The notes beneath the pieces were generated by a model, which saw only the letters and a list, made by a program, of their open reading frames with translations, ran no database searches and was not told where the DNA came from. From the IMG/VR virus record IMGVR_UViG_3300021400_000034, positions 160,001-224,000 of that record: a DNA stretch of 64,000 nucleotides, one strand, 5' to 3'. The DNA is from a virus (taxonomy: Duplodnaviria > Caudoviricetes). Positions within the stretch are counted from its first letter, which is position 1, and every line of letters starts with the position of its first letter. Positions 11,828-44,741 of this stretch are shown here, in pieces. A program made the position numbers and the translations under genes.

Positions 11828-11954
11828 TAAAATTGAGAAAATCCCAATCCGTCGTGCACCATATATGAGCACTATCTCACGAAATCTACAAAGGACATAT
11901 TTTACTATTATTTGACTATCTTCCAAACTATGGAAGAGAAGGAAAGTTACAAAT

Positions 11955-13271: not shown

Positions 13272-13285
13272 TTTCCTTCTCAATC

Positions 13286-13336: not shown

Positions 13337-14815
13337 ATGGTAAACGTTCAATTTCCGCATTTGATCCTAAAGACGCTCTACGTCAATCAGAGCGTTCGCA
13401 ATCGTGTAACCCCTTATCTCTCAGCTGACTGGTTCAGAGAGAATCAGAACATCAGCACAATCATAACTAAGATCTTAGAATACATGGAAAAGTTCGGCCA
13501 GTTCCCGACCGTCATCGAGTCGAGAATGATGCTCCGGACTGACGCTAGCATCCTAGAAGAGTTCGACGCTGCTATGGGAATTCCTGAAGAGGAAGCCTGC
13601 ACTGAGTTCATCCTGCAGGACATCGAGCAGTTTATTCGTCAGAAGCTCCTCTATGACGCTACAGTGAAGATTCAAGAGGCTCTGTTCTCTCACAGCGAGC
13701 CGACCAGCGACGAAGGATCGTTCGCACAGATGGTCGCAGACGCAGAGTCTTTCACGTTCGACACAGACATCGGATTCGACCTAGTAGACGATCTAGACCA
13801 AGTATACGAAGAGATGATCACAGCCGTGAGCATCATTCCTTCGGGAATCAAAGAGATAGACACTCTGCTCAACGGTGGTGTTCCCGACAAGGTGATGATC
13901 GGCATCATGGCTCCGACGAACGTCGGCAAGACTCTAATCATGTCTGCCTTGGCGTCGAACATGCTCACACAGGGACACAACGTTCTGTACATCACCTTCG
14001 AAGACTCTAAGACGAAGATCGCTACGAGAATGATGCAGAACCTGTGCGACATATCGCAAGAGCAGCTCAAGATGCTCAACCGGAACTCGTTCATCGCTCT
14101 CAAGGACATGATGAAGAAGAAGTCTTCACAGCACTTGAAGATCGCCGAAATGGAAGAGTGCACGGTCAACGCTATGAGAATCCGCACTCTCTTGAAGGAT
14201 CTCAAAGAGAAGAAGCACTTCGAGCCAGAGATCATATTCATCGACTACATCGGATGCATGATTCCGAACGGAAGGCCTAACCCGAACCTCAACTCTAACA
14301 CTATCCTGCAGAAGGTAGCAGCCGAGACTAGAGGCTCGATCTGCATGAAGCTGGGCATTCCTATCGTGACTGCTCTTCAGACGAACAGAGGCGGCTATGG
14401 AAGCGCTTCTGTCGATCTGAACGACGTCGCTGACTCTTACGGATCTACGATGAAGCTAGACGCTATCCTAGCTGTGACCCAAGACCAGACGATGCTGCAG
14501 AACGGCATGTACAAGATCAAGGTCGCGAAGACGAGAATCAAGAACAACAAGGGAACTGAAGTCATGATCGGCGTGAGCATCGACAAGCAGCAGATCTATG
14601 ACCTCAACGGCAGCACTCCGTCCGTAGGATCGACTCCAGTGGCTCCAGCAGCTACTCCTAGCCTGACGGACACGGCGACCATCACCGTTCCTACGACTCC
14701 GTCATCTGGAGCTCCGACTCACGCCGTAGAGATTGAACCGAACAAGGACGTAGCAGAGAACGCATACGTCGCTAGCGCAAAAGTTGACCTGGACAAGATA
14801 AATGCGATACTGTAG
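13337..14815 (+). CDS. gp41: Replicative DnaB-like helicase
   Basis: MAPTNVGKT, VLYITFE, IFIDYI, TALQTNRGG, VADSYG. Confidence 0.92.
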   Translation: MVNVQFPHLILKTLYVNQSVRNRVTPYLSADWFRENQNISTIITKILEYMEKFGQFPTVIESRMMLRTDASILEEFDAAMGIPEEEACTEFILQDIEQFIRQKLLYDATVKIQEALFSHSEPTSDEGSFAQMVADAESFTFDTDIGFDLVDDLDQVYEEMITAVSIIPSGIKEIDTLLNGGVPDKVMIGIMAPTNVGKTLIMSALASNMLTQGHNVLYITFEDSKTKIATRMMQNLCDISQEQLKMLNRNSFIALKDMMKKKSSQHLKIAEMEECTVNAMRIRTLLKDLKEKKHFEPEIIFIDYIGCMIPNGRPNPNLNSNTILQKVAAETRGSICMKLGIPIVTALQTNRGGYGSASVDLNDVADSYGSTMKLDAILAVTQDQTMLQNGMYKIKVAKTRIKNNKGTEVMIGVSIDKQQIYDLNGSTPSVGSTPVAPAATPSLTDTATITVPTTPSSGAPTHAVEIEPNKDVAENAYVASAKVDLDKINAIL

Positions 14816-15202: not shown

Positions 15203-15900
15203 TAAAGAAGAGCGAAATATACTGCATCCTGTATCTCTTGAACAAAGAGGTTCACAAGCCCGGAAAGAGCGTCAGCTACGCTAACGCGTTCAATCCTATC
15301 TGCTGGGATGTCGCTATGGACGAGATGGAAGCCGCTAGAGCTTTCGGAAAGAACGAGAACATCGACCGCATCGGAATGGACCGCTGCGTCAAGGCTGCGA
15401 ACGCTCTAGAGTGCGGCCAGACGAACCTAGACACGCTCAAAGTCTATTTCCTCGGGGAATACATCAGAAAGAATCACGGCTGCTTCTTGAAGCGCAAGAA
15501 GGACGGTTCTATACAAGAGAGAAAGTCAAAGAAGTCTGACAAGACGAAGAAGATGTACAACGCAGTGGACGTCAAGGCGCTAGGAAATCTCGAAGGCATA
15601 GACTTCTACAAGCCAGAGAATCTTAAAGGACAGTTCGATACGCTACGCGAGGAAGCTGGAAAGACTGCGTCCCTTATAAACCTACGGCCTGACCAGACAA
15701 ACGGCTTATACGACCTCGTCTGCGCAGGCAAGATAGGGATCCACATCTACCTGCAGCTTTGGAGAAACAACGAGGGGTTCGGGATCGACCTGAGCAAGAA
15801 GAGCGTAAACGACGAGTACAGGAAGTTCGTCAAGATGGTGATGTTCTTGGACCACGACGGCGTCCAGCTGGAGAACGTCTGGTGCCACGACAAAGCGTGA
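15199..15900 (+). CDS. Hypothetical protein, possible helicase loader (gp59 position)
   Basis: Size and position between gp33-like and gp32; no motif recognised. Confidence 0.35.
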   Translation: MIKKSEIYCILYLLNKEVHKPGKSVSYANAFNPICWDVAMDEMEAARAFGKNENIDRIGMDRCVKAANALECGQTNLDTLKVYFLGEYIRKNHGCFLKRKKDGSIQERKSKKSDKTKKMYNAVDVKALGNLEGIDFYKPENLKGQFDTLREEAGKTASLINLRPDQTNGLYDLVCAGKIGIHIYLQLWRNNEGFGIDLSKKSVNDEYRKFVKMVMFLDHDGVQLENVWCHDKA

Positions 15901-15968
15901 GAGAAATTTGCGAGTCAAAAAATTTCCTATATATAAACTAGATCCGCTGGAAAATATCCAGTGAGACG

Positions 15969-16001
15969 AAAGGAACAATAAAGGAACAATAAAGGTACAA
16001 T
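15969..16001 (+). repeat. 11-bp tandem repeat x3 in SSB leader
   Basis: AAAGGAACAAT AAAGGAACAAT AAAGGTACAAT. Confidence 0.9.
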
Positions 16002-16932
16002 GATGATTGAAAGAAAATTCGACAATTACTTCGAACAGATCAAAGAGGTGGCTGCCAAGAAGAGTGGAAGCTCGTTTTCTATTGAAAACGAATTCGTCCC
16101 TGTGATGGTCAATGGCGAGTGCGAAGTCGTGATGCGACTCCTCCCTCAGCCGAGCACGGAAGCTGCACCGTTCGTCGAGAACAGAACGCACTCGTTCAAG
16201 GGCTCTGACGGCAAGTGGCACGTGGTTGACTGTCTCCGCAAGTCCGGCAGCAAGTGCCCGATCTGCGAATGGAACTCAGCCGTGTTCAAGGCATTCCCGA
16301 AAGAGAAGGCTAAGGACATCTGCAAGAAGAAAGCTAAGAGGTCGTTCATCTCCAACGTCTACATCGTGAAGAACACTGCTGCACCGAACACGGAAGGCAA
16401 AGTCTACCGCTTCAAGTACGGCATCCAGATCATGGAGAAGATTCTCGCCAAGATGTCTGACAAGGAAGATCCGGACAAGGGTTTCATCAAGGGAGTCAAC
16501 GTCTTCGACTACTACAACGGCGCTAACCTGATCTTCAAGGCTAAGGACGGCAACTTCGGCCCGAACCCTGAGGCATCATACTTCGGCGACGCAAAGCCGA
16601 TCAGCGACAAGAACAACGTTCCGCTGACTGATGAAGAGATCAAGGCAATCGACGACAGCCTCTACACGCTGAAGGACTGCGAGAAGGACACCTCTAACGA
16701 GACCTTCGAAAGCGTTCTCAACTTGTACGAGAAGTTCGTTGAAGGCGAAAAGCTCTTCGTCCGTGGCAAGGACGCTGAAGGCAAGACGACTTACGATCCG
16801 ATCATTCCGGGCGTGGCCGCAGGCAACACTGCTGCTCTGAACGACGCTGTCCGCAGCGAGTTCGACGTGGAAGAGCCGGATGTCCGTCCGACTGCCGAAG
16901 CTAGCGAAGATTTCTTCGACACCTTGAAGTAA
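16000..16932 (+). CDS. gp32: Single-stranded DNA-binding protein
   Basis: MRLLP, HSF, DCL..KCPICE, SNVYIVK..PNTEGKVYRFKYG, GANL, acidic EDFFDTL tail. Confidence 0.92.
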   Translation: MMIERKFDNYFEQIKEVAAKKSGSSFSIENEFVPVMVNGECEVVMRLLPQPSTEAAPFVENRTHSFKGSDGKWHVVDCLRKSGSKCPICEWNSAVFKAFPKEKAKDICKKKAKRSFISNVYIVKNTAAPNTEGKVYRFKYGIQIMEKILAKMSDKEDPDKGFIKGVNVFDYYNGANLIFKAKDGNFGPNPEASYFGDAKPISDKNNVPLTDEEIKAIDDSLYTLKDCEKDTSNETFESVLNLYEKFVEGEKLFVRGKDAEGKTTYDPIIPGVAAGNTAALNDAVRSEFDVEEPDVRPTAEASEDFFDTLK

Positions 16933-16942
16933 AGAGACTGGT

Positions 16943-16994
16943 TGGGCCGACGAAACTGATAATCGTCCTTTTACTCCTATTTTTAGTCGACCCA
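16943..16994 (+). promoter_or_regulatory. 3'-UTR stem-loop with anti-RBS loop
   Basis: Imperfect 13-bp stem, ~25-nt loop containing TCCTTTTACTCCT. Confidence 0.55.
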
Positions 16995-17006
16995 CGAAGT
17001 AAACCT

Positions 17007-17038
17007 AGGCCACGGGAAGTCAAATTTCCGTGGCCTTT
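17007..17038 (+). terminator. Intrinsic terminator after SSB
   Basis: AGGCCACGG/CCGTGGCCT stem. Confidence 0.75.
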
Positions 17039-17042
17039 CCTA

Positions 17043-17071
17043 TTTACGAAATCCGAGAATTTTCTTATATT
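17043..17071 (+). promoter_or_regulatory. Early/middle promoter
   Basis: TTTACG-N17-TATATT. Confidence 0.6.
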
Positions 17072-17100
17072 GTATATGAACTAGCAATAGAGGAGCCATA

Positions 17101-17994
17101 ATGGACCTTAGAGATCGAAACCTCAGAATCCTCAACTTCACATCATGGAGCATGAACGGAGCAGTGGCGTCAATCATTCTCAAAGCATACTACCCTAGGT
17201 GCAAGACGATATTCACGTCATACCGCACTCAGGAAAACGTGGTCAAGATGATGCTGACGGAGAAGAACTACGACGTCGTGATCTTCACGAACTTCGCTCC
17301 GACCGTCAACCGCGACTTCTACCTCCGCTCAGAGAAGCCTATCGTGATCTTCGACCATCACGAGAATGCGCTCTGGTGGAAGAGCAAGAACAATCCCGAC
17401 TTCCACGTCAATCAGGAATATTCTGGCGCTATGATGGTCTACATGTTCTACAAGCGATGGATGGCCGACATCGAACGCTATCAGGAACAGGCTTATCTGG
17501 CAGACGACTTCGAGCTGTGGAAGCTAAAGGACGCACGCTCGTTCCACTTCAACACGCTGTTCTGGAAGTCCGAGAGCGTCTATGACTTCATCAAGCGCTG
17601 GGCTGCTGGCGGTCCGCTCGCTCTCACTCAGGCCGAGAAAGATATGCTCACTGAGCACGTTCGCGACTGGAAGCTCTACTACGAGTCTCTCGCTCAGCTC
17701 AGTCTGGAGTTCAACGGAAGGTTCATCACTACGAACGACTATCACGCCGAGATCAGCAAGCAGATGGACATCGAAGGAGTCAACTACTTCATGATCTACC
17801 ATCCGAAGTCCAACTACGTGACTTTCCGCTCTTGCAACGCGCTCATCGACTGCAAGGAGATTCTCGGCAGCATGCAAGTCTACACCGCTTCGACTGGAGT
17901 CGGCGTCGTCCCGTGCAAGAACGTCGAAGAGGCTAAGAAGATCTGCAAGGACATCGAAAAGGCTATCCTCACACACATACCAAAAGGTGCTTAA
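17101..17994 (+). CDS. DHH-family phosphoesterase-like protein
   Basis: IFDHHE, YSGAMMVY, DDFELWK; N-terminal Asp motifs appear degenerate. Confidence 0.7.
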   Translation: MDLRDRNLRILNFTSWSMNGAVASIILKAYYPRCKTIFTSYRTQENVVKMMLTEKNYDVVIFTNFAPTVNRDFYLRSEKPIVIFDHHENALWWKSKNNPDFHVNQEYSGAMMVYMFYKRWMADIERYQEQAYLADDFELWKLKDARSFHFNTLFWKSESVYDFIKRWAAGGPLALTQAEKDMLTEHVRDWKLYYESLAQLSLEFNGRFITTNDYHAEISKQMDIEGVNYFMIYHPKSNYVTFRSCNALIDCKEILGSMQVYTASTGVGVVPCKNVEEAKKICKDIEKAILTHIPKGA

Positions 17995-20097: not shown

Positions 20098-20640
20098 ATG
20101 TCTACCTTTGCGAAGAACTACTATCAGGGAACTTTCGTTCCAAAGCATCCGGAGAAGTGTCTCAACTACAACGGGAAGCTCTATCCCGACAAAGTTCTTC
20201 CTATAACTTACCGAAGCTCATGGGAGCAGATCTTGTGCAACTTCTGCGACATGGAAGTGTATGTGCTAGCTTGGGGCTCTGAGGTCGTCGAGATTCCATA
20301 CTACTCACAGATCGATCAGAAGACACACCGCTACGTTCTAGACTTTCTCATCATACTGAGGAACAAGCGTGGAGAACTGAAGAAGTGGGCTGTCGAAGTG
20401 AAGCCAGACAATCAGGCAGCTTATCTGGACAAGATGGGCAACGTGATCTACCCGCCAGCGCCGAAGAGAAAGACTCAGAAGGCGATGGCTAGATGGCAAG
20501 AGAAGTGCCGGGTCATCAGGAGAAACGCTGAGAAGTGGGACGCCGCGAAGGAATGGGCGAAGCGCCGTGGGTTCGAATTCTGTGTAAAGACAGAGAAAGA
20601 GATCTTCGGACTAGCTGGCGAGCACAGGGGCGATGTATAA
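20098..20640 (+). CDS. gp4: Head completion nuclease
   Basis: PKHPEK, YRSSWE, WGSE, HRYVLDF, VEVKP, NAEKWDAAKEW. Confidence 0.9.
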   Translation: MSTFAKNYYQGTFVPKHPEKCLNYNGKLYPDKVLPITYRSSWEQILCNFCDMEVYVLAWGSEVVEIPYYSQIDQKTHRYVLDFLIILRNKRGELKKWAVEVKPDNQAAYLDKMGNVIYPPAPKRKTQKAMARWQEKCRVIRRNAEKWDAAKEWAKRRGFEFCVKTEKEIFGLAGEHRGDV

Positions 20641-32043: not shown

Positions 32044-32051
32044 TATAAATA
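32044..32051 (+). promoter_or_regulatory. Late promoter
   Basis: TATAAATA. Confidence 0.75.
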
Positions 32052-34986: not shown

Positions 34987-35009
34987 GAATTTTCAAGGAG
35001 TAAAAGGAA

Positions 35010-36344
35010 ATGAAAATACTTAATTCCCAGAAGACAATCACTGAGGCATGGAGCGACAAGCCGAATGCTCTCTCTGTTGCATCAATCCAGGACAAGTATA
35101 TTCGTGCCAACACTGCAAAGTTGCTTGAAAACCAGGACCGCTGGGTCAAGAAAGGCATGAGACTTGACGAAGACTTCAGCATGGGCGTTGCTGGTGCTAC
35201 TGGCCTCAACCAGGGTATCCCGCACGGTGGCCCAGGCAAGGGCGTCCTTCCGAACATCTCTATGGCTATCGTCCGTAGAGCTTTCCCGGAAATGTTCGCT
35301 AACGTCCTCGTCGGTGTTCAGCCGATGGCCGGTCCGGTGTCTCTAGCCTGCGCAGTCCGCAGAATCTACAAGACGTCCAACCCGCAGGAAATCATCGAAG
35401 CTGCTTGGAAGCACGTTCCGCGCTTCTCTGGCTTCACTGGCTCTACTGCCAACGCCTCTGGCGAACCGGATGCCGGTACCGCCGTTGAGACGGAAGCTGC
35501 AGAACACTGGAAGCTCGGCGGTGACCCGAACAAGTTCGAGAAGTGGCCGGAACTCGGTCTCATGCTCGCTACTCAGGTGGTCGCAGCTAAGAGCCGTAAG
35601 GTCGGTTCCAGCTTCTCTATCGAGTCTGCTCAGGACATCGAGTCTATGCAGCACCTCGACATGATGGCTGAGATGATCAAGACCTGTCAGGAAGAGCTCG
35701 TTCAGGAAATCGACCGTGAAACGATCGCTCACTGTAAGGCTCTCTGCACGCCTAAGGTTTACAAGTTCGCCGAAGGCAAGGTAAGCACTGCTGAACAGGC
35801 AGGTGGTGTCGGTGACGGCTGGAACGGCCGCTGGTCTCAGGAGAGACTCGCCAACATCGTCGCTAAGCTCATCGGCGCTTCTAACAACATCCGTACCAGC
35901 ACTCGTACCGCTTCCGGTAACATCGCTGTCGTTTCTCCGGACATCGCTACTGCTCTGCAGATCGCTGCCCCGAACTTCAGCAAGATCGTTACCAACGTGA
36001 ACGGCAGCTCTGCTACCGCTAGCGCAGGTACCCTGAACGGCAACATCAAGGTCTTCATCGACAACAACGCTGTTGACCCGATCACTGGAATCGATAACGG
36101 TGAAGCACTCATCGCATACAAGGGCGAAGGCCTTTCCAACTGCGGTGTGGTATACTGCCCGTACATCACTAGCTTGACTCTTCAGGCTACGGATCCTCGC
36201 GACTTCTCTCCGAGAGTTGGCGTGATGAGCCGCTACGCTTTCGCTGACAACATGCTCGGCGCTGAGAACTACTACCGTCTTCTCAGATTCGAAGGTCTCG
36301 CTTCCAAGGTCGGATTCGATACGTCCGAAGAAGGCACGTGGTAA
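35010..36344 (+). CDS. gp23: Major capsid protein
   Basis: TAKLLENQ, IVRRAFP, GVQPMAGP, AKSRK, ESAQDI, EIDRE, YCPYI, FSPRVGVMSRY. Confidence 0.95.
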   Translation: MKILNSQKTITEAWSDKPNALSVASIQDKYIRANTAKLLENQDRWVKKGMRLDEDFSMGVAGATGLNQGIPHGGPGKGVLPNISMAIVRRAFPEMFANVLVGVQPMAGPVSLACAVRRIYKTSNPQEIIEAAWKHVPRFSGFTGSTANASGEPDAGTAVETEAAEHWKLGGDPNKFEKWPELGLMLATQVVAAKSRKVGSSFSIESAQDIESMQHLDMMAEMIKTCQEELVQEIDRETIAHCKALCTPKVYKFAEGKVSTAEQAGGVGDGWNGRWSQERLANIVAKLIGASNNIRTSTRTASGNIAVVSPDIATALQIAAPNFSKIVTNVNGSSATASAGTLNGNIKVFIDNNAVDPITGIDNGEALIAYKGEGLSNCGVVYCPYITSLTLQATDPRDFSPRVGVMSRYAFADNMLGAENYYRLLRFEGLASKVGFDTSEEGTW

Positions 36345-44715: not shown

Positions 44716-44741
44716 AGTGGTACCTCTCGATTTATTTATAG

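Follow-up and report, generated by a model that had tools for sequence, protein, structure and literature searches.

A conserved hairpin in the gp32 3'UTR of large T4-like phages and the complementarity of its loop to the major capsid gene start

Known RNA elements at ribosome-binding sites and the gp32 locus

Hairpin loops rich in C and U pair with Shine-Dalgarno (SD) sequences in the Staphylococcus aureus RNAs RNAIII and RsaE/RoxS, and the sar RNA of phage P22 is an antisense RNA that covers a ribosome-binding site (RBS). The late structural genes of T4-type phages are controlled at the level of transcription, by a late sigma factor and the sliding clamp, and by repressor proteins, among them RegA, gp32, and gp43. 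In the S. aureus icaR mRNA, an anti-SD motif in the 3'UTR pairs with the SD sequence in the 5'UTR of the same molecule (PMC3868564). CisR is an sRNA derived from the 3'UTR of prtV that acts on the cep mRNA of CTXphi (PMC13250501). The c4 RNA of P1 and P7 is mentioned as a phage antisense RNA over an RBS (PMC12197685). The T4 gene 32 mRNA is controlled through a pseudoknot operator at its 5' end and through RNase E sites, and RNase E cleaves it close to the stop codon (PMC3014915). No trans-acting RNA that gates capsid synthesis appears in a 2025 review of phage sRNAs or in the other literature that we searched.

The element described here is a hairpin in the 3'UTR of the mRNA for gp32, the single-stranded-DNA-binding protein (SSB) of a large T4-like phage, with a loop that is complementary to the start of gp23, the major capsid gene. 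By analogy with known systems, it looks most like the anti-SD 3'UTR of icaR, but one that would act in trans. As in icaR, the 3'UTR contains, ahead of the terminator, a pyrimidine-rich anti-SD stretch that complements an RBS. Unlike in icaR, the long match is to the leader of another gene 18 kb away, with only 4-7 nt matching the mRNA's own leader, and the motif sits in the loop of a covarying hairpin. The complement to the mRNA's own SD sequence that marks icaR-type pairing between 5'UTR and 3'UTR was not found here.

The other systems each share part of this arrangement. Like CisR, the element has its seed between a stop codon and the terminator of the same transcript, aimed at the start region of another mRNA; in contrast to CisR, the seed is enclosed in a loop of 29-40 nt instead of forming a free 5' end, the element is known from sequence alone, and both the regulator and the target come from a lytic T4-like phage. 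What it would share with c4 and sar, on the mechanism proposed here, is inhibition of translation by a phage RNA that pairs over a phage RBS. Those RNAs, however, are dedicated small transcripts from the immunity regions of temperate phages, whereas the present element is part of the mRNA of an essential replication gene and its candidate target is the major capsid gene. With RNAIII and RsaE/RoxS it shares a C+U-rich apical loop as an anti-SD seed on a stable stem, but their loops are about 6-10 nt long and reach many targets through UCCC, whereas the loop here is long and has 11-15 nt of gene-specific complementarity.

T4 gene 32 is the same gene in a related phage family, and it is subject to heavy post-transcriptional control. 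The T4 3'UTR is short, about 20 nt before the terminator is added; it lacks a hairpin of this kind and matches the T4 gene 23 leader over 7 nt at best. In these phages, as in T4, the gp32 leader combines a hairpin with tandem A-rich repeats. In the window's own lineage, the leader (15940-16001) contains a covarying hairpin, CTGGA...TCCAG, for which relatives have different stems; it is followed by three tandem 11-nt units, AAAGGAACAAT, that run into the start codon and number two to five in relatives. This leader looks like the counterpart of the T4 gene 32 operator, with a structured nucleation site and an unstructured A-rich tract.

A covarying hairpin between gp32 and its terminator

The window, by which we mean the whole stretch of 64,000 nucleotides that was analysed, comprises bases 160001-224000 of G000, a virus record of 243,336 bp that is complete and has direct terminal repeats. 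WIN denotes the window's own lineage in comparisons with relatives, and the features of interest are listed in Table 1. A T4-type scaffold gene precedes gp23. DNA of the gp32 region gave zero matches to 50,697 GenBank phages, and the protein matches of this region among GenBank phages were all at 31% identity or less, and for these reasons we regard a cultured relative as absent. Together they are large T4-like phages for which metagenomes are the only source.

Table 1. Features of the gp32 3'UTR element and of its candidate target, in window coordinates
Feature	Position	Strand	Basis
gp32 single-stranded-DNA-binding protein gene, source mRNA of the element	16000-16932	+	Pfam PF08804 gp32, E 1.2e-20; ORF list
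Whole conserved 3'UTR element: 5' flank ACTGGT, 9-bp stem, long loop, 3' flank CACGAAGT	16934-17003	+	covariance model R1, 74 bits
Stem 5' arm TGGGCCGAC	16943-16951	+	sequence and fold; pairing 95.6% of cells, 10 sequences
CU-rich loop of 34 nt, predicted largely unpaired; AACT near 5' end and core TTTTACTCCTAT	16952-16985	+	invariant alignment columns; folds
Candidate seed: 13 nt exactly complementary to gp23 ribosome-binding region	16966-16978	+	sequence; RNAduplex
Stem 3' arm GTCGACCCA	16986-16994	+	sequence and fold
gp32 intrinsic terminator: 12-bp stem with 7 GC pairs (17007-17036), then T-run	17007-17046	+	fold and scan
Nearest T4-type late box TATAAATA upstream of gp23	32044-32051	+	box scan of window
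gp23 translation initiation region: SD AGGAG, spacer TAAAAGGAA, ATG (leader type A)	34996-35012	+	sequence; leader types in relatives
gp23 major capsid protein gene, candidate target	35010-36344	+	Pfam PF07068 Gp23, E 4.9e-60

On the mRNA strand, the element follows the gp32 stop codon (16932) and precedes an intrinsic terminator, a layout that is the same in all relatives. Because the strong terminator lies downstream of the hairpin, by 12 nt, the hairpin is inside the gp32 transcript, as an earlier note on this DNA had proposed. That note also gave the stem two mismatches on the plus strand; there is only one, a C.A mismatch that becomes a G.U pair on the minus strand. Its remark that the minus strand folds better was borne out: the minimum free energy (MFE) is -15.9 kcal/mol on the minus strand (z -2.8), compared to -9.7 kcal/mol on the plus strand (z -1.3), a value that is unremarkable by itself. 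The element was ruled out as a Rho-independent terminator, since its loop measures 29-40 nt and its stem is followed by CACGAAGT without a U-run. An Rfam cmscan search of 15850-17150, with E-values up to 10, returned only the snoRNA sR39, at 11.8 bits compared to a gathering score of 50.

Relatives were found by gp32 searches of IMG/VR and of metagenome assemblies, and represent eight stem lineages (WIN, L003/L016, the L004 group, the L005 group, L009, L010, the L022 group, and the L025 group) among which gp32 identity is 68-83%. All eight have one element between the gp32 stop codon and the terminator, with the consensus of a flank AC(T/C)GGT, a 9-bp stem, a 29-40-nt loop, and a flank CAC(G/A)A(A/G)GT. 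Given that the spacer after the stop codon and the sequence of the terminator vary freely among relatives, the element is an island of conservation. In a model-based alignment of 10 distinct sequences from the 8 lineages, 95.6% of stem cells are paired and five of the nine stem pairs show compensatory changes on both sides, so that the check for covariation in relatives suggested by the earlier note came out in favor of the hairpin, which was present in every relative found. The covariation score is 0.519, compared to 0.216 in shuffles, with none of 500 shuffles reaching the observed value, and the signal is lost when the partner is slid by one to three columns. Covariation thus excludes the possibility that the hairpin is not a real feature.

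With the covariance model, the element is present as a single copy per genome in G000, G001, G002, G004, and G005, and no second copy was found in these five related records. Scanning IMG/VR with the flank pattern yielded 59 stretches, among which the model identified one new true member (L141, of the same type as L025); six IMG/VR hits of about 25 bits have no hairpin and were set aside as unrelated. The best-conserved part of the element is its loop, namely the 5'-proximal AACT and the core (C)TCTTTTACTCCTAT. The core TTTTACTCCT is conserved and predicted to be unpaired, and the loop is fully open in the plus-strand folds of most lineages. The hairpin is therefore a new conserved RNA structure, supported by covariation and not represented in Rfam, even if gp23 is not its target. 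The flanks ACTGGT (16937-16942) and CACGAAGT (16993-17000) and the loop AACT (16954-16957) vary little or not at all across the clade, show no obvious sequence with which they could pair, and are left unexplained by every model that we considered.

Of the two strands, only the plus strand has candidate promoters and a terminator suitably placed around the element. All of its neighboring genes are on the plus strand, gp32 itself has conserved promoter-like boxes upstream (candidate sigma-70-like) and its own terminator downstream, and the gene after gp32 has a TTTACG-17-TATATT promoter beyond that terminator. The T4-type late box TATAAATA occurs 14 times in the window compared to 0.43 expected, with 13 occurrences on the plus strand (for example at 20636, 24063, 32044, and 40297), and this excess suggests that the phage probably uses T4-type late transcription. 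No such box is present upstream of gp32, which therefore looks early or middle, whereas gp23 looks late and is probably read from the box at 32044 as part of a late operon.

An alternative is that the conserved feature has its role on the minus strand or at the DNA level, as a fossil start or the start of a small ORF, as an antisense transcript, or as a hairpin in single-stranded DNA. By row, folding energy is better on the plus strand in four cases and on the minus strand in five (WIN, L003, L004, L010, and L021), and in two lineages, WIN and L004, a C.A or A.C mismatch on the plus strand becomes a G.U pair only on the minus strand. The loop read on the minus strand resembles an SD-spacer-ATG arrangement in L003, L005, and L010, and antisense transcription of gene 32 has been reported for T4 (reference in PMC3014915). 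However, five lineages have G.U pairs on the plus strand that would be mismatches on the minus strand. The only minus-strand late box in the window is at 44733, 27 kb away, and no sigma-70-like site was found on the minus strand in the scanned interval 15500-17500. The minus-strand start codon is missing in five of the eight lineages; in this genome none follows the RBS-like sequence, in agreement with the earlier statement that it leads into no ORF. Where ATG is present, the ORFs have 4 codons, 12 codons, or an open end, and L010 has no shared frame. Given the missing start codons and these tiny or unshared ORFs, we read the minus-strand pattern as the mirror image of an anti-start-site loop. 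A cis-antisense RNA or a small ORF on the minus strand was rejected, having neither a sigma-70-like site near the element in the scanned interval nor a conserved start codon or frame, and the minus-strand and DNA-level explanations together seem to us very improbable.

Complementarity of the loop to the gp23 start

The sequence TCCTTTTACTCCT (16966-16978, plus strand) is the exact reverse complement of AGGAGTAAAAGGA (34996-35008, plus strand), which ends one base upstream of the gp23 ATG at 35010; the perfect 13-nt antisense match from which the analysis departed is thus confirmed. This 13-mer has exactly two sites in the 243,336-bp genome, on opposite strands, and these are the loop and the gp23 leader. 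The gp23 start is the longest loop-complementary site genome-wide in G000 and the joint longest in G004, and the energy of the 13-bp duplex is -18.8 kcal/mol (about -18 to -19). An antisense match of at least 13 nt to some leader is found for 7 of 153 3' regions of this genome, and dinucleotide-shuffled loops reach such a match to one of 355 leaders in 3 of 300 cases, or in 7 of 300 for the G004 loop. Taken in this one genome alone, the match is borderline, marginally above chance.

Duplex energy does not single out gp23 in a comparison with all leaders. By RNAduplex energy the gp23 leader ranks only 4 of 355 and 4 of 365 in two genomes, and with a crude accessibility term it ranks 10 and 2. 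Energy ranking was accordingly discarded as a pointer to gp23 alone, several GA-rich leaders having about equal scores. Two further targets had been named, a gp33-like gene and groES; the matches exist (TAGGAGTAA at 14813 and ATAGGAGT at 1359) but are at chance level, and the one at 14813 is not kept in relatives.

These results bear on the possibility that the loop is a general anti-SD decoy for many strong SD leaders, of phage or host, and is not specific to gp23. CUCCU is present in every loop, many leaders lie within 1-5 kcal/mol of the gp23 duplex energy, and matches of 9-10 nt to other leaders exist, all as a decoy would have it. The matches to other leaders, however, are not kept between genomes, conservation runs well past the SD sequence into the gp23-specific spacer, and the 3' regions of this genome show no enrichment of anti-SD words. 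The match itself reaches into the spacer between SD and AUG (UAAAAGAG), and this part is not explicable by resemblance to the anti-SD sequence of 16S rRNA. A decoy function is, in our estimation, improbable.

Conservation distinguishes gp23 from the other leaders. Among 206 ortholog pairs of G000 and G004 (median 64% identity), gp23 is alone in having a leader that complements the loop over at least 10 nt in each genome (13 and 13), the runner-up having 9 and 9. None of the other matches of at least 13 nt between a 3' region and a leader in G000 is retained in G004, in which the corresponding matches measure 5-7 nt. As second conserved targets, a 9-nt match at G000 51130, with no known function, and the best site for the L005 loop in G002, which is not orthologous to it, were considered and rejected. 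Separately, the minus-strand leader at G004:C1:66464-66500, of the gene at 65829-66464, contains two segments (12 and 10 nt) complementary to the G004 loop, for which no counterpart was seen in G000.

The gp23 leader is highly conserved in the clade and has two main types, plus one variant that is one base shorter. Type A, AAGGAGTAAAAGGAAATG, ends in …AAAAGGA and is present in WIN and L046; type B, AAGGAGTAAAAGAGAATG, ends in …AAAAGAG and is present in all others. In five cases, a loop and a gp23 leader could be traced to one phage, with the leader read in four and inferred in one. Complementarity extends over 13 nt both in WIN (type A, read; loop TCCTTTTACTCCT) and in G004/L004 (type B, read; loop CTCTTTTACTCCT), and over 11 nt in L022 (loop TTTTACTCCTT), for which a type B leader was read on the same contig after stepwise exact-protein look-ups along it. 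In G002/G003, of the L005 lineage (type B, read; loop TCTCCTTTACTG), it is 6 contiguous nt, or 13 of 14 if one mismatch and a bulge of 2 nt are allowed. In L003/L016 (type A, inferred; loop CATTTCCTTAAACTCCT), it is 9+6 nt including the AUG, around two A.A mismatches. The L003/L016 leader was assigned to type A because the exact gp32 of this lineage and the exact gp23 of the type A contig L046 occur together on one 121,896-bp contig of ENA ERZ27257204, on which the spacing between gp22 and gp23 is the same 23 nt. With an assumed type B leader, the loops of L009/L021 and L010 would have 15 and 14 complementary nt. In L003, L009/L021, and L010 the predicted complementarity extends toward the AUG, in a manner specific to each lineage.

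Leaders and loops also vary together. GGA-ending leaders (type A) are accompanied by TCC loops and GAG-ending leaders (type B) by CTC loops, and when the loop and leader types are swapped, the match drops from 13 to 11. This co-variation is essentially one event, in the clade of WIN and L003, and the two WIN positions would match by chance with a probability of about 1 in 16. A conserved open seed that co-varies with its target, as in a trans-acting 3'UTR RNA, was found in four of the five lineages and only weakly in L005. The expectation that each loop would follow its own gp23 leader therefore held in part: most lineages are complementary and one co-variation is seen, but L005 has lost the anti-SD part of the match.

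Another explanation is that the loop pairs in cis with the leader of gp32 itself, in an icaR-type interaction between 5'UTR and 3'UTR that would form part of gp32 autoregulation. The earlier note had suggested a weaker pairing of this kind, and UCCUUU in the WIN loop does complement the AAAGGA repeats of the gp32 leader. In L005 the duplex with its own leader is stronger (-15.6 kcal/mol) than that with gp23 (-13.1 kcal/mol), and the uvsX 3'UTR in these phages is complementary to its own RBS. In the gp32 mRNA, however, the own-leader match comprises 4-7 contiguous nt in a register that is not conserved, and it is weaker than the gp23 match in eight of nine rows. Because of these short matches, we rate cis pairing as extremely improbable.

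In uvsX, the 3'UTR begins with TTTCCTTCTC (13272-13281), the complement of the 10-mer GAGAAGGAAA (11936-11945) in the gene's own leader. A 9-nt complement is kept at the same place in G004 uvsX (TCCTTCTCA compared to TGAGAAGGA). The case is one of cis complementarity and involves no hairpin, and it suggests possible 5'-3'UTR pairing of the icaR kind. Complementarity between a 3'UTR and a start site may thus be used more than once in this clade.

A candidate link between replication and head-protein synthesis

The reading that we prefer, tentatively and at somewhat less than an even chance, is that the early gp32 mRNA, either whole or as a processed 3' fragment, uses its loop to pair in trans with the start of the late gp23 mRNA and occludes it. 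The sequence match, the covarying structure, the conservation of the loop, its single copy and fixed position, its co-variation with the leader, and the strand context are established; that the RNA would accumulate and would pair with its partner in infected cells, which way control would run, and a role in timing are inferred. The 9-bp stem would hold the pyrimidine-rich loop of 29-40 nt open, and the loop would serve as an antisense copy of the gp23 start region, comprising the SD sequence, the spacer, and in some lineages the AUG. As regulator we envisage either the gp32 mRNA, with its candidate sigma-70-like promoter and without a late box, or a fragment consisting of hairpin and terminator, which an RNase E cut near the stop codon, as in T4, would release. 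Pairing of the loop in trans with the region from SD to AUG in the late gp23 mRNA would cover the RBS and exclude 30S subunits. Capsid protein would then become abundant only once gp23 mRNA exceeded the pool of gp32 3'UTR, or once gp32 mRNA decayed, and titration would place a threshold between genome replication and the synthesis of head proteins. The direction could also be the opposite, with pairing marking gp32 mRNA for decay late in infection.

In this way the hairpin may link the replication phase to head-protein synthesis. The more specific proposal of an mRNA-to-mRNA timing circuit, in which antisense in the 3'UTR of the SSB mRNA titrates the late capsid mRNA and loop and leader co-evolve, is one that we advance with a little more reserve. 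A stoichiometric antisense RNA would have to rival the very abundant late gp23 mRNA. The L005 lineage also speaks against trans pairing, as it keeps the hairpin but has lost the anti-SD part of the match. Moreover, because loop and leader are both conserved, a coincidental match in the ancestor would persist.

Such a coincidence is part of the main alternative, in which the hairpin is a functional element of the gp32 3'UTR with another job, such as mRNA stabilisation, processing, or service as a protein platform, and the gp23 match is merely inherited. The bound protein could be gp32 itself, which would use the long, open pyrimidine loop, or else ribosomal protein S1 or an RNA chaperone of the host. 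Neither the conserved flanks (ACTGGT and CACGAAGT) nor the loop AACT have a partner in the gp23 leader, several loops are made of ACTCTTTT repeats, and gp23 is not unique by duplex energy. In T4, gp32 binds the gene 32 mRNA, which is also processed close to its stop codon (PMC3014915), and the retention of the hairpin in L005 while the match weakens is likewise consistent with another job. However, gp32 binding is not sequence-specific and so would not hold TTTTACTCCT invariant. Another job also leaves unexplained the co-variation of leader and loop, the extensions toward the AUG in L003, L009/L021, and L010, and the position of gp23 as the only conserved long match. We consider this alternative rather unlikely, a rating that applies jointly to stabilisation, processing, and the protein-platform candidates.

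If pairing in trans with gp23 is true, the hairpin would couple the replication phase to assembly through one compact RNA element, and would be a natural case in a virus of the 3'UTR of one mRNA regulating another mRNA. Natural compensatory pairs exist in the clade, in which leader type A goes with loop type TCC and leader type B with CTC.

Other features of these phages were observed near gp32 or in the same records. A relative of the L022 type (L086/L090/L093, JAEEGK010001110.1) carries, in a stretch of about 32 kb around gp32, at least five OrfB/TnpB (Cas12f-like) genes of the IS605 type, one of which is inserted between a gene of the head-protease region and the scaffold gene, just upstream of gp23. 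The record JAEEGH010000336.1 (297,951 bp; L021 and L023) contains two gp32 alleles with two hairpin types about 250 kb apart, and is probably two related phage genomes joined in assembly. Outside the window, a tRNA cluster at G000:C1:131497-139168 comprises at least 27 genes, as predicted by ARAGORN.
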